Assembly: GCA_034420195.1 (NCBI GenBank)
Contig: DAOULO010000052.1
Coordinates: 323-64,322 of the forward strand
Source: Dehalococcoidales bacterium
GTDB lineage: Bacteria; Chloroflexota; Dehalococcoidia; Dehalococcoidales; RBG-16-60-22
Direction of reading: 5' to 3'
DNA length: 64,000 nt
Positions 3,656-59,890 of this stretch are shown here, piece after piece. The notes beneath the pieces are model-generated. The model saw only the letters and a program-made list of their open reading frames with translations. It did not search any database and had not been told where the DNA came from. Every line of letters begins with the position of its first letter. The first letter of the stretch is position 1. The translations under genes were made by a program, and so were the position numbers.

Positions 3656-3905
3656 TGCCCCTCACCACCCCGCCGGGTTTTTCTTTCCCACCCAGCCTGC
3701 CCTCCGCACGAGGCTTCGGGAGGCGGGCCGCCCTGTGGTATCCTGCCACTACTCGGTGGGGTTTTCTCCCCGCCCCCGGTGGGGTAGGGGTACGTTTCTT
3801 TCCTTTCTGGTGGGGGGTAAAGGGGTGGGGCAACCTACGGCCTAAGCCGCGGATGTGCCGAGGGTGGCCTGGGTGGGAATAGATAACTCAGATGGGGCAG
3901 GATGG
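3656..3905 (+). repeat. intergenic mosaic repeat, long foldback (doublet) copy
   Basis: Left arm TTCTTTCCCACCCAGCC (3681-3697) is inverted relative to right arm GGCCTGGGTGGGAATAGATAAC (core 3871-3887). Has GGCCTAAGCC at 3839 and a G-rich tail. About 200 nt are shared with copies at 8205, 40676 and 59640. Confidence 0.85.
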
Positions 3906-3917
3906 GGGGAAAGTGAG

Positions 3918-3990
3918 TACCCCCAAGCGGATTCGAACCGCTGCTGCCGGCGTGAAAGGCCGGTGTCCTAGTCCTCTAGACGATGGGGGC
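3918..3990 (-). tRNA. tRNA-Glu (anticodon UUC)
   Basis: Minus-strand read GCCCCCATCGTCTAGAGGACTAGGACACCGGCCTTTCACGCCGGCAGCAGCGGTTCGAATCCGCTTGGGGGTA. Cloverleaf with GTTCGAATC T-loop and CTTTCAC anticodon loop. CCA not encoded. Confidence 0.9.
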
Positions 3991-4063
3991 CCACGCCATC
4001 AAGTATACCAGACAAATACCCCCCGGACAATACGCCCACCCGTCCCGCCGGGACGCCTCCGGC

Positions 4064-4092
4064 TTTACTGGCGAAGCCGGCTGGTGTAAAAT
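4064..4092 (+). promoter_or_regulatory. sigma70-like promoter (TTTACT-N17-TAAAAT) for the fmdB-dtd operon
   Basis: TTTACT 4064-4069, 17-nt spacer, TAAAAT 4087-4092, about 35 nt upstream of the 4127 start. Confidence 0.45.
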
Positions 4093-4126
4093 TATAGTAG
4101 CGGATAAACCCACGAGGTGACATAAC

Positions 4127-4390
4127 ATGCCCATCTACGAGTACGAGTGCGGCCAGTGCCAGCATCGCTTTGAGGTCAAGCAGAGCTTCAAGGATAAGCC
4201 CGAGGCGGCCTGCCCCCAGTGCCAGCAAACGGCGCGGCGCATCTTTCACCCCGCGCCGATAATCTTTAAAGGCAAAGGCTTCTACGTTACCGACCACCGC
4301 CCTTCCCCTAAAGATGGGGAGGGCAAAAAGACCCCCGGCGAGTCCAAGCCTGCCGCGGGGAAATCGGAGGCCAGCCAGAGCACCAAGTGA
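4127..4390 (+). CDS. FmdB-family zinc-ribbon protein
   Basis: MPIYEYECGQC...CPQC N-terminal zinc ribbon followed by a low-complexity tail. Confidence 0.8.
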   Translation: MPIYEYECGQCQHRFEVKQSFKDKPEAACPQCQQTARRIFHPAPIIFKGKGFYVTDHRPSPKDGEGKKTPGESKPAAGKSEASQSTK

Positions 4391-5270: not shown

Positions 5271-6178
5271 AGCAGCTTCAGGGTCTGGGCCTCTAACTCC
5301 AGGCTGATGTCCAGCGCCTTGAAGGAGTGCGTCAGCGCCCCCACCGAGATGATATCCACGCCCGTCTCGGCCGCGGCGCGCACGTTAGCCAGCGTTATCC
5401 CCCCCGATGCCTCCAGCTTGGCCTTGCCCGCCACCAGCGCCACGGCGCGGCGCATCTCGTCGGTGGGCATGTTGTCCAGCATGACGATATCGGCGCCGGC
5501 TTTGGCGGCCTCGGCGGCCTCCGGGGCGGAGGTCACCTCTACCTCAATGGTGATGCCCTCGGGGGTGTTGCGGCGGGCCTTGGTGATAATGTCCTTGAGT
5601 TTGAGGCCGGTGGCGCGCAGGGCGGCCAGGTGGTTGTCCTTGATGAGAACGGCGTCGCCCAGGTGGAGGCGGTGATTGTGGCCGCCGCCGGCCCGCACGG
5701 CGTATTTCTCCAGCCGCCGCAGGCCCGGTGTGGTCTTGCGGGTATCCACGATTTTAGCTTTCAGTCCCCCGACCGCTGCCACGTACTGCGCCGTCAGCGA
5801 GGCGATGCCGCTGAGGCGCTGCAGGAAGTTGAGGGCGGTACGCTCCGCCTTGAGGATGCCGGTCAGTCCCCCGCTGATGCTGGCGGCGACGTCGCCCGGC
5901 TTGATGGGCGTGCCGTCCTGAATGAGGATGTCTATCTTCAGCGACGGGTCAACGGTGCTGAAGACGCGCCCGGCCACCCCGATGCCGGCCAGCACGCCGG
6001 CCTCTTTGACGGTTACCTCCGCCTTGCCGGTGAGATAGGGGGGCAGCAGCGCCTGGCTGGTGACGTCGCCGTGGGCGGTGTCCTCGGCCAGGGCGGTATC
6101 GATAATGACCTGGAGATGTTCTGCGGAGAGATAAGCGGCGAGGTCAACGCGGTCTTCCTGCGGAGCGGTAGTTTCCAT
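5267..6178 (-). CDS. nadC: nicotinate-nucleotide diphosphorylase (quinolinate phosphoribosyltransferase)
   Basis: Typical NadC sequence (TRKTTPGLR, NHR, MLDN motifs). Start set at ATG 6178 because the 13 upstream codons of the track ORF are encoded by a repeat copy (6182-6235). Confidence 0.9.
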   Translation of the reverse strand: METTAPQEDRVDLAAYLSAEHLQVIIDTALAEDTAHGDVTSQALLPPYLTGKAEVTVKEAGVLAGIGVAGRVFSTVDPSLKIDILIQDGTPIKPGDVAASISGGLTGILKAERTALNFLQRLSGIASLTAQYVAAVGGLKAKIVDTRKTTPGLRRLEKYAVRAGGGHNHRLHLGDAVLIKDNHLAALRATGLKLKDIITKARRNTPEGITIEVEVTSAPEAAEAAKAGADIVMLDNMPTDEMRRAVALVAGKAKLEASGGITLANVRAAAETGVDIISVGALTHSFKALDISLELEAQTLKLL

Positions 6179-6181
6179 GAT

Positions 6182-6235
6182 ATCTTTTCCCACCCTAGCC
6201 ACCCTCGCGGCATTCACGGCTTAGCCCGTAGTTCG
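6182..6235 (-). repeat. intergenic repeat, degenerate singlet
   Basis: ATCTTTTCCCACCCTAGCCACCC...CACGGCTTAGCCCGTAG aligns with the minus-orientation short module seen at 10930, 46368 and 56400. Confidence 0.65.
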
Positions 6236-6273
6236 GTCGCCCCACTCCACTGATAGATATAAGAAGCCTGTCG

Positions 6274-6323
6274 GTTATCTATTTCCGCCCAACCTTGCCG
6301 GGAGTTGCCGGGGGCTCGGCTAC
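6274..6323 (-). repeat. intergenic repeat, degenerate singlet
   Basis: GTTATCTATTTCCGCCC (2 mismatches to the core) followed by a decayed ...CTCGGCTACC tail. In tandem with the copy at 6182. Confidence 0.55.
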
Positions 6324-8118: not shown

Positions 8119-8204
8119 CCGGCCAGTTAAAAAGAGTATTTTTAACAGTTTTATGATAACATAATCCGCCTTGGTGCTCAATGGGATGGGTTTTTTTATT
8201 GAGT

Positions 8205-8468
8205 AACCTCACCCCCTTTGCCCCGCCCCGCCGCAGAAATATTCTTTCCCACCCAGCCCTGCCCTCCGCACGACCTGCCCGCCGCTCCTTCAGAGCTATG
8301 GCAGGCGGGGGCTTCGGGAGGCGGGCCGCCCGGTGGCATCCTGCCACGACTCGGTGGGGTTTTCTCCCCACCCCGCCGGGGGTAATGGGGAGGGAAACAA
8401 CGGGCTAAGCCGCCGAGGCTACGAGGGTGGTTTGGGTGGGAATAGATAACACTGATTGGGGTGGGGGG
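8205..8468 (+). repeat. intergenic mosaic repeat, long foldback copy
   Basis: Left arm TTCTTTCCCACCCAGCC, internal CTTCGGGAGGCGGGCCGCC..TGG.ATCCTGCCAC.ACTCGGTGGGGTTTTCTCCCC shared with copy 3656, GGGCTAAGCC at 8402, and core at 8434-8450. Confidence 0.85.
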
Positions 8469-8469
8469 C

Positions 8470-9399
8470 TTATTTACGGGCGCAGCCGATAATCTCGCCG
8501 AGGGATTTGATACCCTCCTTGACCAGGAACGCCTCGATGCCCTCCAGTATGTCCAGGGCGGCGCGTGGGTTGGCGAACGTGGCCGAGCCCACCTGCACGG
8601 CGCTGGCCCCGGCCATGAAGAACTCCAAGGCGTCGGCAGCGCACGTAATACCCCCGACCCCGATGACGGGCACGTCCACCGCCCCGGCCACCTCGTAGAC
8701 CATCGCCAGGGCTATCGGCTTGATGGCCGGGCCGGAGAGACCGCCGGTGATATTACCGATGATCGGGCGGCGCCGGGCGATATCGATGGCCATGCCCTTG
8801 ACGGAGTTAATCAGTGAGACGGCATCAGCCCCGGCGCTGGCCACGGCTTGAGCCACGGCGGCGATATCGCCGGTGTTGGGCGTCAGCTTGACGATGACCG
8901 GCAGGGTGGTGGCCTTACGCACGGCGGCCATCACGGCGGCGGCCGTGTCCGGCCGGGCGCCGCAGGCGGCCCCGCCTTCGTTCACGTTGGGGCAGGAGAT
9001 ATTGACCTCCAGGCCGCTGACCCCCTTGACGCCATCCAGCTTCGTGGCCAGTTCGGCGTAGTCGGCGACGCTGTTCCCGGCGATATTGACGATGACCGGC
9101 ACCCGCCATTGCGCCCAGAGGGGCGCTTTTTCCCTGATAACGGCCGCCACGCCGATATTCTGCAGCCCGATGGAATTTACGACGCCGCTGGCCGTCTCCA
9201 CCAGGCGTGGCTGAGGGTTCCCCTCCCGTGGCGTCAGCGTCGTCCCCTTGCAGACGATAGCCCCGAGCTTCTGAATATCAAAGGTATCGGCGTACTCCGT
9301 GCCGTAGCCGAAGGTACCGGCGGCGGTCATCACCGGATTGGCCAGCGTCAGGCCCGGCTTGCCTTTAGGGGCCAGTTTTACCGCTAGGTCTGGGGGCAT
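8470..9399 (-). CDS. pyrD: dihydroorotate dehydrogenase, class 1 catalytic subunit
   Basis: 309 aa with NPVMTAAGTFGYG, GLQN and NISCPN motifs. No pyrK is adjacent. Confidence 0.9.
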   Translation of the reverse strand: MPPDLAVKLAPKGKPGLTLANPVMTAAGTFGYGTEYADTFDIQKLGAIVCKGTTLTPREGNPQPRLVETASGVVNSIGLQNIGVAAVIREKAPLWAQWRVPVIVNIAGNSVADYAELATKLDGVKGVSGLEVNISCPNVNEGGAACGARPDTAAAVMAAVRKATTLPVIVKLTPNTGDIAAVAQAVASAGADAVSLINSVKGMAIDIARRRPIIGNITGGLSGPAIKPIALAMVYEVAGAVDVPVIGVGGITCAADALEFFMAGASAVQVGSATFANPRAALDILEGIEAFLVKEGIKSLGEIIGCARK

Positions 9400-10410: not shown

Positions 10411-10932
10411 TCATCTTTCCCTGGCCGCGGCCAGCTGCTCTAGCCGCCGCATCATGGCCTCCCAGTGGCTGCCCCGCCAGTAGATGCGGCCGCAGGCCGG
10501 GCACTCCATATACTGCTGCTGCGTCTTATAAACATAGGGCGGCACGCGGCCGGCCACCTCCGCCGGGCTCCGGTCTTCCAGCGCCCGGTTACATTCCAGG
10601 CAGAGGGTAAAGGGGTGGTGGGGCACGGCCAGCCCCAGCTTAGCGACGATTTGCCGCATCTGCTGCTCCGGCACCTCGCTCTCAATGAGGACGGCCTTGA
10701 GCCGCCCGCTCTTGACCACCCGCCGCAGCATGATGCCGCTATCGCGGGTGAGCACCACCCGGCCTTCGCTTAGGGCCTGGCGAACCAGGTCGGTATCGTC
10801 ATCACCGGTGAAGAAGGTGCTGTCGTAGCCCATCATGCGCAGCCAGCGGGCTAATTTCCCGACGTTATGGTCAACGATGAATTTTATCTCGCTGATAGGC
10901 TCACTTCTTTCGCTCTTTTTCGCTGCCACCAC
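10411..10932 (-). CDS. Mut7-C (PIN-like) RNase domain protein with C-terminal zinc ribbon
   Basis: FIVDHNVGKLARWLRMMGYD...CLECN...CPACGRIYWRGSHW. The first 13 codons of the track ORF lie inside a repeat copy, so a GTG start at 10932/10929 is proposed. Start is uncertain. Confidence 0.7.
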   Translation of the reverse strand: MVAAKKSERSEPISEIKFIVDHNVGKLARWLRMMGYDSTFFTGDDDTDLVRQALSEGRVVLTRDSGIMLRRVVKSGRLKAVLIESEVPEQQMRQIVAKLGLAVPHHPFTLCLECNRALEDRSPAEVAGRVPPYVYKTQQQYMECPACGRIYWRGSHWEAMMRRLEQLAAARER

Positions 10933-10999
10933 CCCGCCCCTCTCGGAGTAATCTATTCCCACCCAGGCCACCCTGTATCATCCTCGGCTTAGCCCGCAG
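10930..10999 (-). repeat. intergenic repeat, short singlet
   Basis: CTCGGAGTAATCTATTCCCACCCAGGCCACCCTGTATCATCCTCGGCTTAGCCCGCAG; core at 10948-10964. Confidence 0.85.
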
Positions 11000-11007
11000 T
11001 TTTCTCT

Positions 11008-11076
11008 CCGCCCCACCCCCTCAGAGTAATCTATTCCCACCCAGGCCGCCCCGTATCATCCTCGGCTTAGCCCGCA
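11008..11076 (-). repeat. intergenic repeat, short singlet (tandem with 10930)
   Basis: CTCAGAGTAATCTATTCCCACCCAGGCCGCCCCGTATCATCCTCGGCTTAGCCCGCAA; core at 11026-11042. Confidence 0.85.
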
Positions 11077-11093
11077 ATTTTTACCCCGCCCCG

Positions 11094-11864
11094 CTATATC
11101 TCTATCTCCATCCCTTCGTAGCCGGGCTCAATCTCGCTGCCCAGCGAAGCCGCCGCGGCGGCCAGTTCCTCACCTATCACGGTAGCGTCGGGCACGTTCA
11201 TGTGCACCGTCACCACCCGCGGCAGGTAGCCGTGGCGCTGGCGGAAATTTTCCAGTTCCACCCGCAGCTGTCCGGCGGTGAGGTGCCCCGAGGAGCCGAG
11301 GTAATCGGCCCATTTGTTGAGTCCGGTGACCTCGATGACCAGCAGGTCGGGCTTTATTTTTTCAAAGCACTCGCCCAGTCCCGGCCCGGTATCGGCGGTG
11401 TAGAAGAGCCTTTTACCGTCCGGCGCGGTAACCTGGTAGCCCACGGTGGGCACGACGTGGTTCACCGTCAGGGGCAGGACTTTGTAGCCGGCTACGTCTG
11501 CCTCGCGGTCTGACTTGAGCTCTTTGAAGCGCAGCGCCGGGCTTTCCGGGGGTTTCTGGAAAAAGTTGGGGTAGATGCTATCGTTGAGGAGGTGAGCGGT
11601 GAGGGCTTCGTAAACGGGCCGGGTCGTCGCGATGGTAATACTTCGCTCGGCCAGGAAAAAATTCATGGCCAGGGCGGGGACGTCGCGGATATGGTCGTAG
11701 TGCTGGTGGGTTAGGAGTAAGGCCACCAGGCGGTACTGCTCCTCAAGCGTCAGGGCGGTAGCCAGCGACCCGGCGTCGATGGCGAGCCTGCCGTCAACCA
11801 GCAGCGAGATGCCGCCGGTCTGACGCGAGGTGGTGTTGTGTGCCCCCAGAATTTTTACCTTCAA
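11094..11864 (-). CDS. MBL-fold metallo-hydrolase
   Basis: LLTHQHYDH (HxHxDH) motif; 256 aa. Confidence 0.8.
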   Translation of the reverse strand: MKVKILGAHNTTSRQTGGISLLVDGRLAIDAGSLATALTLEEQYRLVALLLTHQHYDHIRDVPALAMNFFLAERSITIATTRPVYEALTAHLLNDSIYPNFFQKPPESPALRFKELKSDREADVAGYKVLPLTVNHVVPTVGYQVTAPDGKRLFYTADTGPGLGECFEKIKPDLLVIEVTGLNKWADYLGSSGHLTAGQLRVELENFRQRHGYLPRVVTVHMNVPDATVIGEELAAAAASLGSEIEPGYEGMEIEI

Positions 11865-13545: not shown

Positions 13546-13619
13546 GACGTTTACCTCTCGCTCGCTAGCGCTAAATTATTGTAGCACAATCGCCGCCCGA
13601 TAGCACCCCTTATATGTGA

Positions 13620-13690
13620 GGGTAAGCTGCTGATGCTGCGAGGGCGGAGGGTGGGAATAGATAACATCGACGGGGTGGGGTGGCGGGGGA
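13620..13690 (+). repeat. intergenic repeat, short singlet (degenerate 5' part)
   Basis: GGTAAGCTGCTGATGCTGCGAGGGCGGAGGGTGGGAATAGATAACATCGACGGGGTGGGGTGG; core at 13649-13665. Confidence 0.8.
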
Positions 13691-13701
13691 ATTACACCAA
13701 A

Positions 13702-15153: not shown

Positions 15154-16454
15154 TGGAAGCCATCCTGGCCGAAGCGAAGAAAGTCGCCCCGGCGGCGGAG
15201 GTCTTCCGCGTCGCCTCCGAGGAGACGCAGGTGCACTTCGAGGCCAACCGCCTCAAGCAGCTCCAGACCAACCAGACCACCAGTTTGGCGCTGCGCATCG
15301 TCAAGGACGGGCGCACCGGCTACGCCACGACGACGGGCGAGGGCGATGCCAAAGCGCTGGTGGCGGCCGCCGTGGAGACGGCCGCCTTCGGCACCGAGGC
15401 CAAGTTCAAGCTCCCCGGCGCGGCGGCCTACCCGAAGGTCGATATTTACGACCCCGCCGTGCCGGATGTCTCCATCGAAGAGATGATAAAACTCGGCGAG
15501 GCGATGGTGGCCGCCGTGACCGGCCACACGCCGGGCATCGTCTGCGAGGCCGGGGTCAGCCGGGGCGTCATCACCATGAGCCTGCTCAACTCGCAGGGCG
15601 GCCGGGCCGACTACCGCAAGAGCTTTTTCAGCCTGGATATTGAGGGTAATTTAATCGAGGGGACGGACATGCTCTTCGTCGGCGAGGGCGAGGCCTCCTG
15701 TCATCCCCTGGCCGATACCAAGACGGTCACTGATTTGGTCTTAAGGCAGCTCGACCTGGCCGCCCGCAAGGCCAAATCGCCAACGAAGCAGCTTCCGGTA
15801 ATTTTCACCCCCAACGGCGTCACCGCCCTCATCATGCCGCTCGTCGCCGCCTGCAACGGCAAGACCGTCCTCGAAGGCGCCTCGCCGCTGGGTGACAAAG
15901 TGGGGAAGACTGTCTTTGACAAAAATTTCAGCCTCTACGACGACGCCACGCTGGCCTACCGCCCCGGCAGCCGCCCCTGCGATGACGAAGGCGTGCCCTC
16001 GCGGCGTACCCCGCTGGTGGAGGAGGGCGTCGTCCGCGGTTTTCTCTACGACCTGCAGACGGCCGCCCTGGCCGGCAAGGAGAGCACCGGCAGCGGCTCC
16101 CGCGCGCGCGGCGGCCTGCCCGCCCCGTCGCCCAGTGCCCTGGTTATTGCCCCCGGTAAGACTACCTTCGACGACATGGTGGCCGATATCAAAGAGGGCC
16201 TCGTCGTCGAGCAGCTCATGGGGGCCGGGCAGGGCAATATTTTGGGCGGGGACTTCTCCGGCAACGTGCTGCTGGGCTACAAGATTGAGAACGGCCAAAT
16301 CGTGGGGCGGGTCAAGGACACGATGGTCTCCGGCAATGTCTACGCTGCCCTCAGGGACATCGCCGCCATCGGCCGCGAGCCGAGGTGGGTCGGCGCTTTC
16401 CTCCACACCCCGCCGATTTATTGTAAGGGGCTGGCGGTTTCCAGCCAGGGGTAG
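15153..16454 (+). CDS. pmbA: PmbA/TldE-family protein
   Basis: 433 aa paralogous to TldD but lacking HExxxH. Position is typical of the TldD partner. Confidence 0.85.
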   Translation: MEAILAEAKKVAPAAEVFRVASEETQVHFEANRLKQLQTNQTTSLALRIVKDGRTGYATTTGEGDAKALVAAAVETAAFGTEAKFKLPGAAAYPKVDIYDPAVPDVSIEEMIKLGEAMVAAVTGHTPGIVCEAGVSRGVITMSLLNSQGGRADYRKSFFSLDIEGNLIEGTDMLFVGEGEASCHPLADTKTVTDLVLRQLDLAARKAKSPTKQLPVIFTPNGVTALIMPLVAACNGKTVLEGASPLGDKVGKTVFDKNFSLYDDATLAYRPGSRPCDDEGVPSRRTPLVEEGVVRGFLYDLQTAALAGKESTGSGSRARGGLPAPSPSALVIAPGKTTFDDMVADIKEGLVVEQLMGAGQGNILGGDFSGNVLLGYKIENGQIVGRVKDTMVSGNVYAALRDIAAIGREPRWVGAFLHTPPIYCKGLAVSSQG

Positions 16455-16480
16455 GGAATAGATTAAAAAGGTGTTGGGTG
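16449..16480 (+). repeat. partial/decayed copy of the intergenic repeat core
   Basis: GGGGTAGGGAATAGATTAAAAAGGTGTTGGGTGG overlapping the pmbA stop. Only about 11 nt of the core are conserved. Confidence 0.35.
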
Positions 16481-17054: not shown

Positions 17055-17138
17055 TATCGGGGAAGCTCTCAGGCCCGGGGACAGTTTTGCTAGGTTTTAG
17101 AACCCTTTGACTGGCAGTCAAAGGGTGTGGCGTACTCC

Positions 17139-46248: not shown

Positions 46249-46280
46249 CACTACACAGCTATTCTTATCTTGGCAGCTTC

Positions 46281-46309: not shown

Positions 46310-46367
46310 GGAAAATACCATGAAAATTCTTTCATTATGAGGTATCGGTTATTTTACATAAGCTTAC

Positions 46368-46436
46368 ACCCCTCCCCCCTCGGAGATATCTATTCCCACC
46401 CAAGCCGCCCTGTATCATCGGTGGCTTAGCCCGTAG
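46368..46436 (-). repeat. intergenic repeat, short singlet
   Basis: CTCGGAGATATCTATTCCCACCCAAGCCGCCCTGTATCATCGGTGGCTTAGCCCGTAG; core at 46385-46401. Confidence 0.85.
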
Positions 46437-46449
46437 TTTTCCTCCTCTT

Positions 46450-50996: not shown

Positions 50997-51029
50997 CGCC
51001 GGAATAGTCTCCCTTAATAGGGCGTAACC

Positions 51030-51140
51030 CTTTCATTTTCCGGTTGGTGGGGTAAAGGGGTGGTAGCAATCTGTGGGCTAAGCCCTGGATGCACCGAGGG
51101 TGACTTGGGTGGGAATAGATAACTCCGAGGAGGGGAGGGG
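51030..51140 (+). repeat. intergenic repeat between trxA and trxB
   Basis: ...GGTTGGTGGGGTAAAGGGGTGGTAGCAATCTGTGGGCTAAGCCCTGGATGCACCGAGGGTGACTTGGGTGGGAATAGATAACTCCGAGGAGGGGAGGGG; core at 51107-51123. The G-rich tail doubles as the trxB SD. Confidence 0.85.
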
Positions 51141-52165: not shown

Positions 52166-52966
52166 GTGAAGGTTATTTTTCTCGAAGATGTCGCCGGTAT
52201 CGCCCGGGCCGGGCAGACCCGGACGGTGGCCGATGGCTACGCCCGGAACTACCTCCTGCCGCGCCAGCTGGCCGTTCAGGCCAGTTCCAAGGCCTCGACG
52301 CAGCTTGAGGCGCAGCTACGCCGCATCGCCCAGCGGCAGGCCCAGGAAGAGGTCGAACTGGCCGAGTTGGCCGAAAAGCTCACCGGCACCCAGATTACCG
52401 TTAAGGCCAGGGTCGGCGAGAGCGACAAGCTCTACGGCTCGGTGACCGCCGCCGATATCGCCGCCGCTCTGGAGGGGCCCGCCGGGCGTGAGATAGACAA
52501 GCGCAAGATTGAGATTGCCGAGCCCATCCGCCACCTGGGCACGCATGAGGTGACCGTCCGCTTCCTCCACGATATTACCGCTGCCATTAAGGTGGTCGTT
52601 GAGGCCGAGGCAGTCGCCGAGAAACCCGAAGAGGCGGAGAAGAAACCCAGGGCCAAAGCGGAGGCCGCCGCAGAGGCAATGGCCGAGGAAGCCGTAACCG
52701 AAGCCCCGGTGGAAGAAGCTACTGCGGAAGCCCCGGTTGAAGAAACTGCCGCGGAAGCGACTGCCGAGCCAGCCGCCGCGGAGGAAGCGGCGGCGGAGAA
52801 GAAGACCAAGACGAAATCCAAGGCCGCGGCCAAGCCGGAGAAGAAGACCAAGACCAAAGCCAAGGCCAAGGCCGAAAAGCCGGAGAAAAAGACCAAAGTC
52901 AAGGCGGCCAAGAAGACCAAGAAGGCCGCCGCCAAAGACACGAAAGCAGCCCCAGAGGAGGCCTAA
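52166..52966 (+). CDS. rplI: 50S ribosomal protein L9 with about 118-aa Ala/Glu/Lys-rich C-terminal extension
   Basis: MKVIFLEDV...GYARNYLLP L9 N-domain and a full L9 fold to about aa 148, then AE-rich and KTK-rich low-complexity tail. GTG start. Confidence 0.9.
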   Translation: MKVIFLEDVAGIARAGQTRTVADGYARNYLLPRQLAVQASSKASTQLEAQLRRIAQRQAQEEVELAELAEKLTGTQITVKARVGESDKLYGSVTAADIAAALEGPAGREIDKRKIEIAEPIRHLGTHEVTVRFLHDITAAIKVVVEAEAVAEKPEEAEKKPRAKAEAAAEAMAEEAVTEAPVEEATAEAPVEETAAEATAEPAAAEEAAAEKKTKTKSKAAAKPEKKTKTKAKAKAEKPEKKTKVKAAKKTKKAAAKDTKAAPEEA

Positions 52967-52969
52967 GCG

Positions 52970-54346
52970 GTGAACGACGTCAGGCTGCCGCCCAGCGATA
53001 GTGACGCCGAGGAAGCCGTTATCGGCGCGCTGCTCATTGACGGCACGTCCATCTTTCAGATTGCCGACTTCCTGCAGGCGGCCGATTTCTACGACGAGTC
53101 AAATCGCTGGCTCTACGAGGCTTGCCTGGCCCTCTACCAGCGCGACGAGGCCATCAACCAGGTCACCCTGGCGCAGGAGCTTTCGCGACAGGGGCGCCTG
53201 GAGGCCTGCGGCGGGGCCGCCCGCCTGAGCTATTTGATTTCCGTCTGTCCCACCTCGCTGGACATCGAGCACTACGCCCGCATCGTCTACCGCCTCTCGG
53301 TAATGCGCCAGATGATTGCCGCCGGCGAGCGCATCTCGGCCATCGGCTATGAGGCCGGGCCGGACGTAACCGACAGCCTGGCGCGGGCCGAGGGCGTGCT
53401 CTTCGGGCTGCGGCGCGGGCAGGCCGGCGGTGACCTGCTGCACATCCGCCAGGTGCTGGATAAATATTTCGAGGTGCCGCCGCCCCCGACCGAGGACCGG
53501 CCGGAGCGCCTGCCTTACGTCCTCTCCAGCTTCCCCGGCCTGGATGAGTTCCTGGACGGCTTCCAGCGCGCCGACCTGGTGATTATCGCCGGGCGGCCCA
53601 GCATGGGCAAGACCAGCCTGGCCCTCAATATCGCCCGCAACGCCTCCGTCGACCACCGCGCCTGCGTCGCCCTCTTCAGCCTGGAGATGGCGCGCGACTC
53701 CCTGGTGCAGCGCCTCCTCTCCAGCGAGTCCGGCGTCAATACCCGCCGGATACGCTTCGGGCAGCACACCGAGGACGAGGAGCGGCGGGTCATGGAGGCC
53801 ACCGGCATCCTCTCCGAGGCACCCGTTTACGTCGACGACACGCCGATGCTCCGCGTCGCCGAGATGCGCTCCAAGGCGCTCCGGCTCAACTACGAGCGCG
53901 GCGTCGATATGGTTATTGTCGACTACCTCCAGCTCATGGAGGGGGAGGGCCACCGCGGCGAGAACCGCGTCCAGGAAATCAGCTACATCTCCCGCACCCT
54001 CAAGGCCCTGGCCCGCGAGCTTGACGCCCCGGTGCTGGCGGTCTCCCAGCTCTCCCGTGCCGTGGAGTGGCGCGCCTCCCACGAGCCGCAGCTCTCCGAC
54101 CTCCGCGAGAGCGGCAGCATCGAGCAGGACGCCGACGTCGTCCTCTTTATCTACCGCGACGAGTATTACTACAAGACCGAGGAAGAGTGGCTGACGGCGC
54201 ACCCCGACCGGGAATATCCCCGCGAGGAGGCCGACGTCATTATCGCCAAGCACCGCAACGGCCCCACCGGCCGCATCAAGATGCGCTTCCGGCACAATCT
54301 GGCCCGGTTCGAGAGCCTGGGCAGCGTGGAGCCGACGATGCTATGA
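52970..54346 (+). CDS. dnaB: replicative DNA helicase DnaB
   Basis: AEEAVIGALL N-terminus, Walker A GRPSMGKTS, and IVDYLQLM. GTG start. Confidence 0.95.
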   Translation: MNDVRLPPSDSDAEEAVIGALLIDGTSIFQIADFLQAADFYDESNRWLYEACLALYQRDEAINQVTLAQELSRQGRLEACGGAARLSYLISVCPTSLDIEHYARIVYRLSVMRQMIAAGERISAIGYEAGPDVTDSLARAEGVLFGLRRGQAGGDLLHIRQVLDKYFEVPPPPTEDRPERLPYVLSSFPGLDEFLDGFQRADLVIIAGRPSMGKTSLALNIARNASVDHRACVALFSLEMARDSLVQRLLSSESGVNTRRIRFGQHTEDEERRVMEATGILSEAPVYVDDTPMLRVAEMRSKALRLNYERGVDMVIVDYLQLMEGEGHRGENRVQEISYISRTLKALARELDAPVLAVSQLSRAVEWRASHEPQLSDLRESGSIEQDADVVLFIYRDEYYYKTEEEWLTAHPDREYPREEADVIIAKHRNGPTGRIKMRFRHNLARFESLGSVEPTML

Positions 54347-55053
54347 CCAAGTTTCAGGGTTTTCCCACCCGGATGGAGTTCACCGCCGTCCCCAATCTCT
54401 TCTTCAGCGGCCTGCTCCCCCACGTCGACGACCTGGCCGAGCTGAAGACGACGCTGGCCGTCATCGCCGCCATTTATCGTAAAAAAGGCTCACCGCGCTA
54501 CGTGAGCTTGAGCGAGCTTAGGGGCGACGCCGCCCTGATGCAAGGACTTAAAAGTATCGGGAAAGAGCCGGAGGCGACGCTGGAGGCAGCTTTGAAAATG
54601 GCGGTGGGGCGGGGCACGCTGCTCCGCCTGGGACTGGAGGGGAAAGACGGCGCCGAGGAAGTCTATTTCCTCAACGACGCGCCGGGTAGGCAGGCGGTAG
54701 CTAAAATTGAAAGCGGGGAGATTAAGCTCGGCGGGATGAAGGCGGTGCGGCCGGTAGAAACGACCGGGGAGCCGCCGGATATCTTCACCCTTTATGAGGA
54801 GAACATCGGCCTGCTGACGCCAATGGTGGCCGACGAGCTAAAACTGACCGAAAAGACCTATCCCGCCGCCTGGCTGCGCGATGCCATCAAAGAAGCGGTT
54901 TTACATAACAAGAGAAACATCAGGTATATCACCAAGATTTTAGAGAACTGGTCGGCGGAAGGCCGGAGCGATGGAACACATCAGCGAGATACTCAAAAGG
55001 CAGACCCGGACAAGTACATCAAAGGCAAATACGGGCACATGGTCCGCCGCTGA
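54343..55053 (+). CDS. dnaD: DnaD-domain replication initiation/primosome protein
   Basis: C-terminal FTLYEENIGLLTPMVADEL...IKEAVLHNKRNIRYITKILENW matches the DnaD/DnaB_2 domain. ATG 54343 overlaps the dnaB stop (ATGA); the upstream part of track ORF 54067 is rejected. Confidence 0.75.
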   Translation: MTKFQGFPTRMEFTAVPNLFFSGLLPHVDDLAELKTTLAVIAAIYRKKGSPRYVSLSELRGDAALMQGLKSIGKEPEATLEAALKMAVGRGTLLRLGLEGKDGAEEVYFLNDAPGRQAVAKIESGEIKLGGMKAVRPVETTGEPPDIFTLYEENIGLLTPMVADELKLTEKTYPAAWLRDAIKEAVLHNKRNIRYITKILENWSAEGRSDGTHQRDTQKADPDKYIKGKYGHMVRR

Positions 55054-56386
55054 GGCGGACGAAGCGCCCCCCGCCTCCCCGGAATGCCCCGTCTGCAAGG
55101 GGGCCGGTATCGTGCATCCCCGCCTGCCCTCCGGCGAGCCGGACTACAGCCGGGCCGTCCCCTGCCGCTGCACCAAAAAAGAGCAGAAGGGCGAGCGCCA
55201 GGAGCGGCTGAAACGCTACAGCAATCTTGGCTCCTTGGTGCGCTTTACCTTCGCCAATCTGGAGCCGCGCGGCAAGAGCGGCCATCCCCGCGCCCAGGAG
55301 CAGTTCCAGCGCGCCTGCGAGGCCGCCAAGGCCTTCGCCAGCGAACCCAAAGGCTGGCTGGTGCTGGGCGGCCCCAGCGGCAGCGGCAAGACCCACCTGG
55401 CGGCGGCCATCGTCAACGAGACCATCAGCCGGGGCCAGCCGGCCCTGTATATCACCGCCCCCGACCTGCTCGACCGCCTGCGCGCCTCCTTTGGCCCTGA
55501 CAGCGAGACCCCCTACGACGAGTTCTTCGAATCGGTGCGCGCCGCCCCTCTGCTCGTCCTCGACGACCTGGGGGCGCAGTCGGGCACGCCCTGGGCGCGC
55601 GAGAAGCTCGACCAGCTACTGACCTCGCGCTTCAACAGCGAGCTGCCGACGGTCATCGTCACCGTTAAGCCCGTTGAGGAGATGGAAGAGCGGCTGCGCA
55701 CCCGCCTCACCGACCCGCGCCTCTCGCAGGTATACATCCTCGAAGAAGATAAACCCACCGAGGAGTACGCCTGGGGGCCTGAGTTCGCCCTGCAGAAGGG
55801 GATGACCTTCGCCAGCTTCGACCGGCGACGTAACCTGCCCCCGGAGCAGCAGGAGAACCTGGACTGGGCGCTGGAGGCCGCCCTGAATTTCGCCAAGAAC
55901 CCGGAGGGATGGCTGGTGTTTATGGGCTTTACCGGCAGCGGCAAGACCCACCTGGCGGCGGCCATCGTCAACTACCGCTACGAAGCCGGCCAGCCCGCCC
56001 TCTTCGTGGTGGTGCCTGAGTTCCTCGACCACCTGCGCTCCACCTTCGGCCCGGAGAGCAAGGTCTCCTACGACGAGCTTTTCGAGAGCGTCAAGACGGC
56101 GCCGCTATTGGTGCTGGACGACTTCGGCGAGCAGTCCACCACGCCCTGGGCCAAGGAGAAGCTCTACCAGGTGCTCAACTACCGCTATAACGGGCGGCTG
56201 CCCACGGTGATTACCACCCGGCACTCGCTGGATGAAATCATCGAGAAGTTCGATAGCCCGGTCTCTTCGCGGCTGGCCGATAAGAGCATCAGTGTGCCTT
56301 TCAACATCACCGCGCCCGATTACCGCAGCGACGTGACCCACAACCGCAAGAAGACTTCTTCCAGCCGGAAGAGCAAGAGGTATTAG
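54971..56386 (+). CDS. helicase-loader ATPase with two tandem DnaC/DnaI-type AAA+ modules and an N-terminal Cys4 element
   Basis: Module 1 (about 55223-55744): GGPSGSGKTHLAAAIVN...LLVLDDLG. Module 2 (about 55802-56305): GFTGSGKTHLAAAIVN...LLVLDDFG. N-terminal CPVCKGAG...CRC. The only ATG start overlaps dnaD by 83 nt. Confidence 0.8.
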   Translation: MEHISEILKRQTRTSTSKANTGTWSAAEADEAPPASPECPVCKGAGIVHPRLPSGEPDYSRAVPCRCTKKEQKGERQERLKRYSNLGSLVRFTFANLEPRGKSGHPRAQEQFQRACEAAKAFASEPKGWLVLGGPSGSGKTHLAAAIVNETISRGQPALYITAPDLLDRLRASFGPDSETPYDEFFESVRAAPLLVLDDLGAQSGTPWAREKLDQLLTSRFNSELPTVIVTVKPVEEMEERLRTRLTDPRLSQVYILEEDKPTEEYAWGPEFALQKGMTFASFDRRRNLPPEQQENLDWALEAALNFAKNPEGWLVFMGFTGSGKTHLAAAIVNYRYEAGQPALFVVVPEFLDHLRSTFGPESKVSYDELFESVKTAPLLVLDDFGEQSTTPWAKEKLYQVLNYRYNGRLPTVITTRHSLDEIIEKFDSPVSSRLADKSISVPFNITAPDYRSDVTHNRKKTSSSRKSKRY

Positions 56387-56399: not shown

Positions 56400-56478
56400 A
56401 GCCACCCCTCTGCCCCGCCTCTCGGAGTAATCTATTCCCACCCAAGCCGCCCTCGGCGCACCCACGGCTTATCCCGGA
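56400..56478 (-). repeat. intergenic repeat, short singlet
   Basis: CTCGGAGTAATCTATTCCCACCCAAGCCGCCCTCGGCGCACCCACGGCTTATCCCGGAG; core at 56427-56443. Lies between convergent genes. Confidence 0.85.
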
Positions 56479-56481
56479 GTT

Positions 56482-57144
56482 CTATCCCTTCCCCTCTTTG
56501 AAAGAGAGCGCCCCGGTCGGGCAGGCCGCCACGCAGACGCTGCAGTCCAGGCAGCGCTCCGCCCCGATGGGCTCGTCGCCGAAGGTGGTCAGCCGCCGCT
56601 CGAAGCCGCGGTGGGCGAACCCCAGCACACCGGACTTTATATCCCGCCGGCAGGCCCAGACGCAGCGCCCGCAGAGGACGCACTTGTTGGGGTCGTAGGT
56701 GAAGAGGGGGTTGGAGTCGTCCACGGGCAGTTCCCGCAGCAGGACGCGGAATTGCTTTGGCTTGAGCTTGCAGCCGAGGACTTGAGCAATCTTCTGTAGC
56801 TCGCATTTTTTATTGGCCGGGCAGTGGGCGCAGTCCAGCGCGTGCGAGGCCATGAGCAGGTCGAAGCCGGTGCGGGCCAGCGCCAGGGCCCTTTCGCCGC
56901 GCGTGTTGACCACCATGCCTTCGCTGACGGTCGCGGTGCAGGCGGTCACCGGTGCTTCCTTCCCGGCTATCTCCACGAAGCAAAGGCGGCAGGAGGCGCT
57001 CGGCTCGGGCTTATCGGCGATATGGCAGAGGTTGGGGATGTAGATACCGTTGGCCAGCGCCGCCGCCAGGACACTCGTGCCCGCGGGCGCGGTGACTTTC
57101 TTCCCGTCGATGGTAAGCGTTATGGTCTCTTTATTTACCGTCAT
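56482..57144 (-). CDS. Fe-S protein resembling only the N-terminal part of NuoG/HydA ([2Fe-2S] + His-ligated and 2x[4Fe-4S]); no catalytic domain
   Basis: 220 aa; TIDGKKVTA...CRLCFVEI...C (2Fe-2S), HALDCAHCPANKKC, CVLCGRCVWAC, CLDCSVCVAACP. Ends directly after the last cluster. Confidence 0.8.
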   Translation of the reverse strand: MTVNKETITLTIDGKKVTAPAGTSVLAAALANGIYIPNLCHIADKPEPSASCRLCFVEIAGKEAPVTACTATVSEGMVVNTRGERALALARTGFDLLMASHALDCAHCPANKKCELQKIAQVLGCKLKPKQFRVLLRELPVDDSNPLFTYDPNKCVLCGRCVWACRRDIKSGVLGFAHRGFERRLTTFGDEPIGAERCLDCSVCVAACPTGALSFKEGKG

Positions 57145-57145
57145 A

Positions 57146-59074
57146 TCACTGTTTTGACTTTTGAGCCTTGACCTTTGAGCCGTTATCCGGCACCTCGCTG
57201 GGCGGCGAGAATTTCATAATGGCGTTATACTGCGGCGGGCAGGCGGCCAGGCAGGTGCCGCACTTGACGCATTTCTCCGGGTCGATGACCTTGATGCGCT
57301 TTTTGTTCGGCGAGATGGCCTCGACGGTGCAGGAGCCGACGCAGGCGTCGCAGGAGCGCTCGCACTTATCGGGCAGGATGTAGTAGGCGATGAGGTGCAG
57401 GCACATCAGGGCCGGGCAGCGCCCCAGCTCGATGTGCTCGCGGTACTCGTCGCGGAAGTAGCGCAGGGTGGTGAGGATGGGGTTGGGGGCCGTCGCGCCG
57501 AACTGGCAGAGCGAGCCGGCCTTGACGTCGGCGGCCAGCTTTTCCAGCGTGTCCAGGTCTTCTATTTTGCCCTGCCCCTGGGTGAATTCGGTGAGGGTCT
57601 CCAGCATCTGCTTGGTGCCCAGGCGGCAGAAGGTGCACTTGCCGCAGGACTCGCGCTGGGTGAACTCCAGGAAATAGCGGGCGATTTCTACCATGCAGTC
57701 GTCCTCGTCGAGCACGACCATGCCGCCGGAGCCCATCATCGCCCCGGCTTCCCGCAGCGACTGGAAATCGACGGGTAAATCCAGGGCGCTTTCGGGCAGG
57801 CAGCCGCCGGAGGGCCCGCCGATTTGCACCGCCTTGAACTTTTTACCCTTGGGGATGCCGCTGCCCGCCTCGAAGATAATCTGCCGCAGGGTGGTGCCCA
57901 TGGGCACCTCCACCAGCCCGGTATTGACTACCTTGCCGGCCAGGGCGAAGACGGCCGTGCCGGGGCTCTCCGGCGTGCCGATGCCTTTAAACCATACTGC
58001 CCCCCGCCCGATGATGTGGCGCACGTAGGCCAGCGTCTTGACGTTATTAACGACGGTGGGCTGGCCGTCGAGGCCGCGTGTGGCCGGGTAGGGCGGGCGG
58101 TGGCGGGGCATGCCCGACCGGCCTTCCAACGAGGCGATGAGGGCCGTCTCCTCGCCGCAGACGAAGGCCCCCGAGCCCTGAAAGAGCGTAATATCAAAGC
58201 TGAAATCCGTCCCCAGGATATTTTCGCCCAGTAGGTTGAGCTTTTCGGCCTGTTCAAGGGCCGTTTCCAGCCTCTCGACCGCTAAGGGGTACTCGGCGCG
58301 GACGTAGATGTAGCCCTGGCGCGCCCCGACAGCGTAAGCGGCGATGATAATCCCCTCGATGACGGAGTGGGGGTCGCTCTCCAGGATGGCGCGGTCCATG
58401 AAGGCGCCGGGGTCGCCTTCGTCGGCGTTGCAGACAATGTACCGGGTATGACCGGGGGCCTCGCGGCAGGTCTGCCATTTCTGGCCGGTGGGGAAACCGG
58501 CCCCGCCCCGGCCGCGTAATCCGGAGTCGGCGACTTCCTTAATAACGGTTTCCGGGGTCGTGTCGAGGGCCTTGGCTAAAGACTCGTAGCCCCCGGTGGC
58601 GATGGCGTGCTCGATATCCGTCGGGTCAATGTGGCCGCAGTTAGCCAGGATGATTTTTTGCTCGTACTGGGCGCGGGGGAAGTCGCCGAAGCTGGGCAGG
58701 AGGTCGTTGGCCTCCAGCGCCGCCAGGACGAACTCGGGGCATGGGTTATCGCCCAGGATGAACTCCTTGACCAATCGCTCGGCGATGACGGGGTTGACGT
58801 AGCCGTAGGCTATCGGCGGGTAGCCGGGCTTGGCGATGATAACGAGGGGCTCAGCGTAGCAGTGGCCGATGCAGCCCACCTCAATGACGGGCACGTCCAG
58901 TTCGCGCTTCTTTATTTCGTCGCGGAAGGCAGCCAGCACCTCTAGGGCCCCGGCGGCCCGCCCGCAGGTGGCGGCCCCCACCATGACCACCGTCCCGTCA
59001 CGGCTCGCTGGCCAGCGGGCCACGGCGTGCTCCTTAAGCGCCGCAAAGGCGGCCGCCGCTTTAGCCTGCTTCAC
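57146..59074 (-). CDS. NuoF/HydB-like NAD(P)H-binding flavoprotein with N-terminal thioredoxin-like and C-terminal 2x[4Fe-4S] domains
   Basis: 642 aa; GRGGAGFPTGQKW (FMN/NADH), SCGKCTFCR (N3 cluster), and C-terminal CDACVGSC...CVKCGTCLAACP. Confidence 0.88.
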   Translation of the reverse strand: MKQAKAAAAFAALKEHAVARWPASRDGTVVMVGAATCGRAAGALEVLAAFRDEIKKRELDVPVIEVGCIGHCYAEPLVIIAKPGYPPIAYGYVNPVIAERLVKEFILGDNPCPEFVLAALEANDLLPSFGDFPRAQYEQKIILANCGHIDPTDIEHAIATGGYESLAKALDTTPETVIKEVADSGLRGRGGAGFPTGQKWQTCREAPGHTRYIVCNADEGDPGAFMDRAILESDPHSVIEGIIIAAYAVGARQGYIYVRAEYPLAVERLETALEQAEKLNLLGENILGTDFSFDITLFQGSGAFVCGEETALIASLEGRSGMPRHRPPYPATRGLDGQPTVVNNVKTLAYVRHIIGRGAVWFKGIGTPESPGTAVFALAGKVVNTGLVEVPMGTTLRQIIFEAGSGIPKGKKFKAVQIGGPSGGCLPESALDLPVDFQSLREAGAMMGSGGMVVLDEDDCMVEIARYFLEFTQRESCGKCTFCRLGTKQMLETLTEFTQGQGKIEDLDTLEKLAADVKAGSLCQFGATAPNPILTTLRYFRDEYREHIELGRCPALMCLHLIAYYILPDKCERSCDACVGSCTVEAISPNKKRIKVIDPEKCVKCGTCLAACPPQYNAIMKFSPPSEVPDNGSKVKAQKSKQ

Positions 59075-59594
59075 CTTTTCCCTTTGCTTTCGCCTGGCGC
59101 TCGTTCTCGAAGGCCAGCAGGATGCCGTCGACGCGGGTAGGTTCCACCTGGCCCTCCGGCTTCTCGTCGACGACGGTCACCGGGGCCATCGTGCAGCAGC
59201 CGACGCAGGCCACCGTGTCCAGGTCGAACTCGCGGTCGGGGGTCGTCTGGCGGGGGTCTATCTTGAGGCGGCGCTTCCAGGCGTCCAGGGTGATGTGGCC
59301 GCCCTTCATATGGCAGGCGGTGCCCAGGCAGACGCGGATGGAGTGGCGGCCCGGCGGGTTGAGGCGGAACTGGTTATAGAAGGTGACCACGCCGTAGACA
59401 TCGATAGCGGGGATATCTAGGTAGGTGGCAATCTCGGTCATGGCCGGGCGCGGCAGGTAGCCGAGCTTGCCCTGGACTTTTTGCAGGATGGGGATGAGGT
59501 TGTGCCGCTTTTTATTGAAGCCGCCGAGAATCCGCCGGGCGGTCCCGGCGAGCTTTTTGCTTTCGTTTTGAGGGGGTTTCTTTGTTTTTGTCAT
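59061..59594 (-). CDS. NuoE/HydC-like [2Fe-2S] thioredoxin-fold subunit
   Basis: 177 aa; CLGTACHMKG...CVGCCTMAP cluster motif. Overlaps the NuoF-like gene by 14 nt. Confidence 0.88.
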   Translation of the reverse strand: MTKTKKPPQNESKKLAGTARRILGGFNKKRHNLIPILQKVQGKLGYLPRPAMTEIATYLDIPAIDVYGVVTFYNQFRLNPPGRHSIRVCLGTACHMKGGHITLDAWKRRLKIDPRQTTPDREFDLDTVACVGCCTMAPVTVVDEKPEGQVEPTRVDGILLAFENERQAKAKGKGEAG

Positions 59595-59620
59595 GGGATT
59601 TTTTAGGGGCTCCTAGTTCA

Positions 59621-59649
59621 ATTCTGGCGAAGCGGGGCGTATTTGTCAA
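59621..59649 (-). promoter_or_regulatory. candidate promoter (TTGACA-N17-CAGAAT) of the nuoEF-like operon
   Basis: Minus strand: TTGACA (59644-59649) and CAGAAT (59621-59626). The -35 sits at the edge of a repeat copy. Confidence 0.4.
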
Positions 59650-59890
59650 GGTATGGATATTAAGGGTGGGGGTTTTCCACCCCGAACCCCACCCCCGGTG
59701 GTTTTATTTCCCGCCCAACCCGCCCCGGGGCGTTTCCGGCTTATCCCGAAGATGAGTACCCCCATCCCCCGGTGGAGTGGGGATATACTTTCCTATGCTG
59801 GTGGGGTAAAGGAGGGATAGCTAGGGGCTAAGCAGTTGATGAGCCGAGGGCGGCAGGGTGGGAATAGATAACCCCGATGGGGTGGGGAGG
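59640..59890 (+). repeat. intergenic mosaic repeat, long foldback copy
   Basis: Left arm TATTTCCCGCCCAACCCGCC...CCGGCTTATCCCGAAG is an inverted short module. Right arm GGGGCTAAGCAGTTGATGAGCCGAGGGCGGCAGGGTGGGAATAGATAAC; core at 59856-59872. Confidence 0.85.

Follow-up and report, generated by a model that had tools for sequence, protein, structure and literature searches.

We analyzed a 64,000-nt stretch of DNA from a Dehalococcoidales bacterium (GenBank assembly GCA_034420195.1, contig DAOULO010000052.1, positions 323 to 64,322 of the forward strand; the whole stretch is referred to as “the window”) and found that it harbors a real, clade-specific and apparently undescribed family of interspersed intergenic repeats. 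The basic unit of this family, here termed module A, is a non-palindromic, strand-asymmetric (G-rich) sequence of ~80–95 nt that contains a conserved 17-nt core, GGGTGGGAATAGATAAC. Copies occur in several modular arrangements, lack a conserved fold in their single form, have a near-random orientation toward the neighboring genes, and are gained and lost at module boundaries between related genomes. The best explanation, to which we assign a probability of roughly 55%, is that the family is a long-resident, non-autonomous mosaic repeat that is mobile at the DNA level, and that it would be recognized by its sequence and moved in trans by an enzyme.

Module anatomy, copy number and distribution

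The window (63% G+C) was searched for the 17-mer with up to two mismatches, and the result was compared with 100 dinucleotide-preserving shuffles. There were 15 matches versus 0 expected. A profile hidden Markov model (HMM) built on 112 aligned modules resolved these into 13 intergenic sites with 15 A modules and three recognizable arms of a second, inverted type (B arms). The family occupies ~2 kb of the window and about one in five of its intergenic regions. These counts establish as genuine the enriched intergenic mosaic repeat family that an earlier, sequence-only reading of the window had proposed. All 15 core positions given in that reading were reproduced, the sole correction being that the degenerate copy starts at 6179 and not at 6182. 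A decayed trace that it had placed at 16454 reads GGGTAGGGAATAGATTAA and is plausible, albeit below the detection limit of the HMM. According to a crude gene map with Pfam annotation (~60 open reading frames, ORFs), every copy in the window is indeed located between housekeeping genes, and in a larger sample only 6 of 114 cores fell inside called ORFs, mostly as N-terminal over-extensions or chance hits.

The anatomy of module A was derived from 155 copies, comprising those of the window and of 90 loci retrieved by the exact 17-mer. On alignment the copies share module boundaries: conservation spans approximately −58 to +37 nt around the start of the core and is flat beyond. From 5′ to 3′, the module consists of a G-tract, ACTACGGGCTAAGCC, a variable stretch of ~13 nt with GATG, GAGGGCGG, the 17-mer, and a second G-tract. 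The consensus of the left part is a GGGGTGGGG-like G-tract followed by aAACTACGGGMTAAGCCG and nnGATGnnnCG, and that of the right part is AGGGYGG, cct, GGGTGGGAATAGATAAC, nnnGA and the G-tract. The short module of ~65 nt described previously was thus right as far as it went, but incomplete, as it missed the 5′ G-tract. Conservation is very uneven. The 17-mer, GAGGGCGG, GATG and GGGCTAAGC are each conserved at >90%, beside positions at ~40%, and in the window the core has only 10 mismatches in 255 positions, compared to 61–80% identity between copies in the left half of the module.

Four recurrent forms were distinguished, namely the single A module, the direct tandem, the A module with an inserted hairpin, and the foldback doublet. 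Singlets are the majority, and A singlets are better conserved than B arms. Direct tandems have a period of ~78 nt with one G-tract in common, as at 10931–11086 of the window and in the related loci L013, L038, L053, L067, L073 and L075, and their number equals or exceeds that of doublets. The medium form with an inserted hairpin was recovered at all three places where it had been reported (cores at 17202, 19867 and 27536). The insertion point is fixed exactly between GAGGGCGG and GGGTGGG, and at least three unrelated hairpin sequences use it. Of 73 occurrences of an associated GC-rich hairpin, GAGGGGC-loop-GCCCCTC, 48 are no more than 300 nt away from an A core, mostly on its 5′ side. The long foldback forms also exist as described, with corrected limits of ~3656–3912, 8195–8470, 40775–40985 and 59683–59890. 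These doublets measure ~210–250 nt, make up ~10–13% of sites, and consist of a diverged inverted B arm and a spacer, followed by an A module. The B arm reads ...GCCCCGGGGCGGGCTGGGTGGGAAAGAA... on its reverse complement and was paired with an A module in every case (7 of 7 in the sample; it was never found alone), and the spacer holds a C-tract/G-tract hairpin of its own. The inverted ends are imperfect and ~45 nt long, with CCCCRCCCC..TTTCCCACCC paired with GGGTGGGAA..GGGGYGGGG. Predicted DNA folding was strong for the doublet at 40770–40990 (−61 kcal/mol, z = −4.2) and weaker for the one at 59678–59895 (z = −1.2).

A second repeat family was encountered in the relatives and not in the window. 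It is a hairpin, CTGGATTCCnGC-loop-GCnGGAATGAC, which occurs 25 times in 20 loci (L028, L039, L042, L052, L089 and 15 others). In 15 of the 25 cases an A core is no further than 150 nt away, and the hairpin often follows directly upon its 3′ G-tract.

The A singlet shows no sign of a conserved structure. No consensus pairs were predicted by RNAalifold from the 112 modules on either strand, single-sequence folding of A singlets was close to that of shuffled sequences (z ~ −0.6), and the one candidate stem of 6 bp (AAGCCG...CGGCTT) was paired in 74% of copies versus 73% in shuffles and showed almost no covariation (10 compensatory cells). These results argue against a hairpin, of RNA or of DNA, as a feature of the singlet, which, having neither a palindrome nor a conserved fold, lacks the defining feature of repetitive extragenic palindromes (REPs). 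In an Rfam scan the elements had no match even at E ≤ 5, and only two tRNAs of the window exceeded the gathering threshold; no named RNA family could thus be assigned at either gathering or permissive thresholds, in line with the sequence-only reading. A role as intrinsic terminator was rejected, because a terminator scan found none in A modules, and so was a guide-like role of the variable stretch, for which matches of ≥10 nt elsewhere in the window did not exceed chance. The proposed G-quadruplex potential applies to the B arms (GGGGCGGGCTGGGTGGG), in which a canonical four-tract motif (loops ≤7 nt) occurs, but not to A singlets, where such a motif is absent.

Among 108 copies classifiable by orientation relative to the neighboring genes, 39 were sense, 23 antisense, 25 between convergent and 21 between divergent genes. 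This near-random orientation indicates a DNA-level element rather than a cis-acting RNA. It also qualifies the previous impression that copies often lie between convergent genes or next to tRNAs: convergent locations do occur, but tRNAs are not enriched. Only two tRNAs adjoin elements, and the nine tRNAs in ~390 kb of loci represent background density, which speaks against tRNA-linked integration. The two tRNAs of the window are tRNA-Glu and tRNA-Ser.

The exact 17-mer was detected in at least 90 stretches of species-representative genomes, nearly all of them metagenome-assembled genomes (MAGs) of Dehalococcoidales/Dehalococcoidia from 23 accessions (species-level genomes). A few singletons in unrelated phyla appeared at about the chance rate. 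Loci fetched by the CorA protein provided a sample unbiased by the motif: relatives with CorA at ≥83% identity contained six copies in 66 kb, and no copy was present in 542 kb of relatives with CorA at ≤66% identity. Copy density was ~0.23 per kb in the window, 0.33 in L093, and ~0.05 in L094 and L095. The family shares the general properties of bacterial interspersed mosaic repeats, as it is high-copy, intergenic, modular and variable between relatives. Among the papers searched, none contained the motif or described such repeats in Dehalococcoidia. An origin from plasmids or phages was rejected, since BLAST gave no match in plasmid and phage collections. Two AT-rich IMG/VR viral contigs (36–40% GC; L171:3146–3162 and L172:6107–6123) have the 22-mer GGTGGGTGGGAATAGATAAC. 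This is more extension of the core than expected by chance, but the rest of the module is absent, and the context is repeat-rich and otherwise unrelated.

Occupancy and junctions in related genomes

Occupancy was compared with four contigs that are syntenic with the window at 85–87% identity (L067, L091, L092 and L093); comparisons at ~72% identity were too noisy for defining junctions. It differed at five of ~9 comparable sites, and the breakpoints were module boundaries. Such presence and absence between close relatives supports the suggestion in the sequence-only reading that the family behaves like a mobile element. In L067, ~130 nt corresponding to 51003–51131 are missing and the putative ribosome-binding site GGGGAGGGG is kept. 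L093 and L091 lack the 208-nt tandem block 10887–11095. L092 and L091 do not have the singlet at 13609–13695, whereas L093 has it, with identical junctions. L093 lacks the B arm and spacer at 3657–3815 (158 nt) and 8186–8403 (~200 nt) and has the A module alone there; in both of these tRNA-proximal doublets, the B arm plus spacer start exactly at the 5′ G-tract of the A module. In L053, an additional A module resides in the spacer of the doublet orthologous to that at 59.8 kb, and L015 and L073 differ by having one versus two tandem copies. A look-up of exact proteins for insertion polymorphism at the strain level returned one contig with the same arrangement as in the window for the first protein and no record for the second.

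The filled and empty pairs, which are few and come from genomes ~15% diverged, revealed no common flank and no regular duplication at the junctions. A TA/TAT target-site duplication is possible at 10.9 kb, and none was seen at 13.6 kb or at two junctions of B units. Divergence between copies was 0.22 within a genome versus 0.25 between genomes, which points to an old and diverse population with little concerted evolution and without a recent burst. At orthologous sites, the core changed more slowly than the rest of the element. The variable stretch of the orthologous copies at 13.6 kb differed at ~40% of positions, compared to 9% in the flanks. As the variable stretch outpaces the flanks at some orthologous copies, it appears to have been replaced there by conversion or re-insertion.

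Several copies touch the expression or content of adjacent genes. The 10.9-kb insertion supplies a new N-terminus to a Mut7-C gene, and the core or the 3′ G-tract is predicted to act as ribosome-binding site at nadC and trxB. Many copies lie just upstream of promoters; for the singlet at 13.6 kb, the comparison of filled and empty sites shows that the promoter predates the insertion. These effects on the host, i.e., ribosome-binding sites, new N-termini and proximity to promoters, look incidental. Some copies mark differences in gene content between relatives. A hydrolase gene (46450–47340) beside the singlet at 46367–46444 is absent in L067, a low-GC island at 20–24 kb adjoins the copy at 19867, and inverted copies bracket small low-GC accessory genes in related MAGs (L029:2363–3434 and L058:2137–3831), of which one was identified by eye as encoding an Mrr_N-like protein of 162 aa and the others encode unknown proteins. 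This suggests that the repeats mark spots of gene-content change.

Mobility and alternative explanations

In the reading that we prefer, copies would be gained and lost in intergenic DNA, and new material would join at or beside G-tracts, including those that bound existing copies; GGGGNGGGG is a candidate junction sequence. The G-tract context of the observed junctions is consistent with this idea, given that GGGGAGGGG is kept in the empty site and that the B units border directly on the 5′ G-tract of A. Joining at G-tracts would account for the tandems with a common G-tract, for the hairpins between two G-tracts, and for the B units joined to A. A trans-acting enzyme would recognize the conserved blocks, above all the 17-mer, and not a hairpin, and insertion would take place without a regular target-site duplication. 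High turnover and replicative selection could then hold the recognition blocks conserved while the remainder of the element varies.

A mobilizing enzyme was sought in several places. The earlier statement that the window contains no transposase holds for the annotated ORFs, with one related hit, an IstB/DnaC-like protein of 471 aa (54971–56386) located directly after DnaB (52970–54346). It has two tandem AAA+ domains, and its gene contains internal DNA repeats that are 555 nt apart and 70–78% identical; it is probably a duplicated helicase loader and not an IS21 helper. Clustering of the ORFs from 90 loci revealed no recurrent transposase-like family beside copies, with no systematic Y1-domain scan being made. 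A parent insertion sequence (IS) with the same ends was not found in the window, 170 loci, plasmids or phages. The most recurrent ORF near copies encodes a 335-aa family with an internal duplication, MGQYDKYICTTLQKRHMLPGPGP... (L082:6514–7521 and relatives in 12 of the 90 loci). It was rejected as the associated enzyme, as it has no Pfam match and no fixed geometry and does not occur in the window. ORFs located between inverted copies were likewise dismissed as transposases, because they encode an SDR, the Mrr_N-like protein, and island genes of no known function.

The lack of a transposase or candidate enzyme in the window, beside the copies of the 90 loci and between inverted copies weighs against a mobile repeat moved in trans, and it leaves presence and absence alone to argue for mobility. 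Other points weigh in the same direction. Deletion or recombination could be behind some of the differences in occupancy, and the precise junctions are few, stem from genomes ~15% diverged, and display neither a common flank nor a duplication. No near-identical pairs of copies were seen, and recent copying has thus left no direct trace. Moreover, the uneven conservation and the slower core would also fit host selection on each copy, and the 40% versus 9% divergence at 13.6 kb calls for an additional process, e.g., gene conversion or re-insertion.

The alternative that survives best, although we regard it as unlikely, is a system of REP doublets forming hairpins (REPINs) and a REP-associated tyrosine transposase (RAYT). 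Here the doublets would replicate, a single-copy transposase of the HUH tyrosine type would move them as single-stranded DNA, and A singlets would be relics. The strong foldback of one doublet (z = −4.2), the lack of a visible target-site duplication, and the long and apparently vertical persistence of diverse copies in one clade agree with this scenario, and REPINs are known to persist in a lineage as a diverse copy population (PMC3116915; bioRxiv 10.1101/2021.07.10.451892). The hairpin insertions at a fixed point fit as well, as they would leave the geometry intact only in an element that is read single-stranded. The tetranucleotide CTAC, the complement of GTAG, adjoins and precedes GGGCTAAGCC and is conserved at 50–70%. 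However, there is no hairpin at this position to flank, and GTAG would be 3′ of the GGGCTAAGCC block on its strand, opposite to GTAG-tagged REPs, in which the tetranucleotide is found at the 5′ foot of the hairpin (PMC3733652). The scenario is further at odds with singlets that have no palindrome, form the majority and are better conserved than B arms, with asymmetric doublets that direct tandems at least equal in number, and with the lack of a Y1 transposase in the 64-kb window and of a recurrent transposase-like ORF family in the 90 loci.

A DNA site selected by the host is, in our view, rather improbable. According to this explanation, each copy binds a clade-specific protein, with an architectural role like those proposed for REP/BIME elements or a promoter-proximal regulatory role, and is kept in place. 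It would explain the >90% conserved blocks beside positions at ~40%, the slower evolution of the core in orthologous copies, and the little concerted evolution. It would also fit the distribution of sigma-70-like promoters: of 132 copies, 19 had such a promoter in the sense direction immediately beyond the 3′ end, and none had one in this direction on the 5′ side (antisense controls, nine each). In contrast, sites kept in place should not differ in occupancy at five of ~9 positions between genomes that are 85–87% identical, nor would copy density be expected to vary ~5-fold between close lineages. The genes next to copies share no common function, and the promoter at 13.6 kb is older than the insertion.

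We consider it improbable, too, that the family consists of classical miniature inverted-repeat transposable elements (MITEs), in which the doublets would be deletion derivatives of an IS with a DDE transposase and would retain its terminal inverted repeats, with the singlets as solo ends. The size of the doublets, their imperfect inverted ends of ~45 nt, the variable occupancy between close relatives, and the possible TA/TAT duplication at 10.9 kb point toward such elements. What argues against them is that singlets insert alone (13.6 kb and 51 kb), that the 13.6-kb site has no duplication and the sites taken together show no consistent one, that neither a full-length element nor a transposase was found between inverted copies, and that plasmid and phage collections gave no match. 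Finally, a structured non-coding or cis-regulatory RNA family (small RNA genes, or leader or 3′UTR elements) is very improbable: random orientation would be compatible with independent small transcription units, the variable hairpins at a fixed position resemble the variable arms of structured RNAs, and there is a mild sense excess (39 versus 23), but the elements are Rfam-negative, have no consensus pairs on either strand, fold like shuffled sequence, possess no promoter or terminator signature of their own, and contain a variable stretch without guide-suggesting matches elsewhere in the window.

Going beyond a mobile repeat moved in trans, one may speculate that module A represents a new class of prokaryotic interspersed sequence that is read as a single strand. 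A clade-specific protein would recognize the 17 nt and the G-tracts instead of a palindrome, and it might be either a new G-tract-directed, duplication-free mobilizing enzyme or a domesticated promoter-proximal binder. If the module is read as a single strand, it becomes understandable that one fixed point tolerates unrelated hairpins. We regard this proposal as unlikely.

Features of the window and comparison with known repeat systems

The features of the repeat family in the window are listed in Table 1.

Table 1 Members of the repeat family and their immediate surroundings in the window (core, 17-mer; A and B, module A and inverted B arm)
Feature	Position	Strand	Details
Foldback doublet	3656–3912	+	B-arm HMM match 3663–3704 (minus) with nested hairpin insertion; A 3827–3902, core 3871–3887; ends ~5 nt from the 3′ end of tRNA-Glu
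Truncated A module	6174–6237	−	Core 6179–6195, 2 mismatches; nadC ATG cuts the module right after the core; GGGTGGG 10 nt upstream of the nadC start codon
Degenerate core remnant	6271–6292	−	GGGCGGAAATAGATAAC; HMM E = 0.18; orthologous truncated copy in L093
Foldback doublet	8195–8470	+	B ~8221–8330 (minus) with nested hairpins; spacer; A 8391–8468, core 8434–8450; between pyrD and tRNA-Ser
Direct tandem of two A modules	10931–11086	−	10931–11007 and 11008–11086; period 78 nt, one common G-tract
A singlet	13612–13695	+	Core 13649–13665; without 5′ G-tract; directly upstream of a TTGACA-17-TAAACT promoter-like site for pmbA/tldD
Possible decayed trace	16449–16466	+	GGGTAGGGAATAGATTAA; read from sequence, HMM-negative
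A module with hairpin insertion	17132–17229	+	CCCGCC...GGCGGG hairpin between GAGGGCGG and core 17202–17218
A module with hairpin insertion	19861–19959	−	Same hairpin type; core 19867–19883; without 3′ G-tract; abuts a perfect TTGACA-18-TATAAT (minus strand) and the low-GC island at 20–24 kb
A module with hairpin insertion	27519–27666	−	Core 27536–27552; GAGGGGC-loop-GCCCCTC hairpin 27646–27666; convergent genes on either side
Hairpin and foldback doublet	40745–40985	+	GAGGGGC-loop-GCCCCTC 40745–40765; B 40777–40850 (minus); spacer; A 40906–40982, core 40950–40966
A singlet	46367–46444	−	Core 46385–46401; upstream of nusA promoter and leader
A module with long 5′ extension	51003–51140	+	HMM match 51062–51140, core 51107–51123; between trx and trxB; 3′ G-tract GGGGAGGGG is also the putative trxB ribosome-binding site
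A singlet	56414–56488	−	Core 56427–56443; between convergent genes
Foldback doublet	59683–59890	+	B 59689–59760 (minus); spacer; A 59815–59890, core 59856–59872

The ~60 ORFs of the window are ordinary housekeeping genes by Pfam annotation. They include genes of metabolism (pyruvate kinase, nadC, pyrD, trx/trxB, a NiFe hydrogenase and Nuo-like subunits), transport and secretion (yajC and CorA), proteolysis (PmbA/TldD), and replication and expression (TruB, IF2, NusA, L9 and DnaB). A low-GC island at 20000–24000 (52% versus ~63% GC), beside the copy at 19867, looks like an acquired defense island. Its ORFs (20086–21726, 21793–22662 and 22667–23698) encode an OLD-family ATPase with a TOPRIM nuclease domain, a PNP/UDP-type phosphorylase, and a 343-aa protein without a Pfam match. 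Right after the same repeat copy (19856–19784, minus strand), the perfect TTGACA-18-TATAAT has a TG extension and is followed after ~30 nt by a terminator-like hairpin, CCCCTCGCCCGAGGGG, with a T run, which also serves a convergent mtnA-like gene. This site could be an orphan promoter or give rise to a very short antisense transcript.

The nusA leader (46204–46350, minus strand), close to the singlet at 46367–46444, was far better conserved relative to L067 than the neighboring intergenic DNA in an alignment inspected by eye. It comprises TTGCAT-17-TATAAT and a hairpin, AAGTGGGTTTGATTCCCACTT, with a T run behind it; a function as leader or attenuator of the nusA-infB operon is possible. In-frame repeats rich in Lys, Ala and Pro codons are present at 44052–44387 and 52604–52922; one set recurs every 24 nt in the N-terminal part of IF2, and another makes up a long Lys/Ala-rich C-terminal tail on L9. 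Furthermore, two distant intergenic regions share an inverted pair of 51 nt with 76% complementarity (3212–3262 and 38717–38767; GTTATAAAAT...AAGTTACAAAACTGTGTCAT). This pair has no relation to the G-rich family and may represent a common regulatory region.

Knowledge of uncultured Dehalococcoidales comes almost entirely from metagenome bins, and their non-coding DNA has hardly been explored. The repeats described here will disrupt short-read assemblies and lead to spurious N-terminal extensions of ORFs, and now and then they alter ribosome-binding sites or the starts of genes. Owing to its lineage specificity, the family could serve as a marker. The family is a well-populated bacterial interspersed repeat with a non-palindromic unit, and it does not agree well with either standard model of mobilization, in which a RAYT works on hairpins or a DDE transposase on inverted ends. 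The identity of the partner protein could therefore reveal a different way of spreading short DNA, which will be of interest to specialists in bacterial repeats and Dehalococcoidia genomics.

The sequence-only reading had called the elements REP/REPIN- or MITE-like. Their behavior fits this description, but membership in these families was not demonstrated, given the missing palindrome, the asymmetric doublets that are a minority, and the absence of a regular duplication. Like REPs, bacterial interspersed mosaic elements (BIMEs) and REPINs, the family is high-copy, intergenic and mosaic, with singlets, tandems and inverted pairs; it has persisted for long in its lineage without an obvious target duplication, and some copies fold back. 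REPs, however, are stem-loops or imperfect palindromes of 20–40 nt, whereas the unit described here has ~80–95 nt, is not palindromic and has a strong G/C strand asymmetry. In REPINs the symmetric doublet is the main unit and singlets are decayed, whereas here doublets are a minority (~10–13%) with unlike arms A and B, the A singlets are the best-conserved form and appear alone at new sites, and tandems with a common G-tract are frequent. No RAYT was found among the ~60 ORFs of the window.

MITEs such as the Correia/NEMIS elements of Neisseria are of similar size (~100–250 nt), show insertion polymorphism, and have inverted ends, which in the family studied here are confined to doublets and absent in singlets and tandems, i.e., in the majority of copies. 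As in Correia/NEMIS, some copies are located beside expression signals or supply them. Correia elements duplicate TA, whereas here no regular duplication is seen, single non-inverted modules spread alone, and no parent IS is known. The BOX elements of Streptococcus pneumoniae (boxA-boxB-boxC) are likewise modular and intergenic, with optional or repeated inner modules, no known mobilizing enzyme, and occasional effects on neighboring expression. For a whole BOX element, however, a stable RNA structure is predicted, which the A singlet does not have; there is no sequence relationship, and strand composition and host phylum differ. The SNR/SRE repeats of Deinococcus radiodurans, mosaic intergenic repeats of 60–215 nt in a GC-rich genome with a mobilization that is unknown, can be set beside the family by description only. 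Being intergenic, modular, variable between relatives and non-coding like REP/BIME, BOX and MITE sequences, the family is not surprising in kind.

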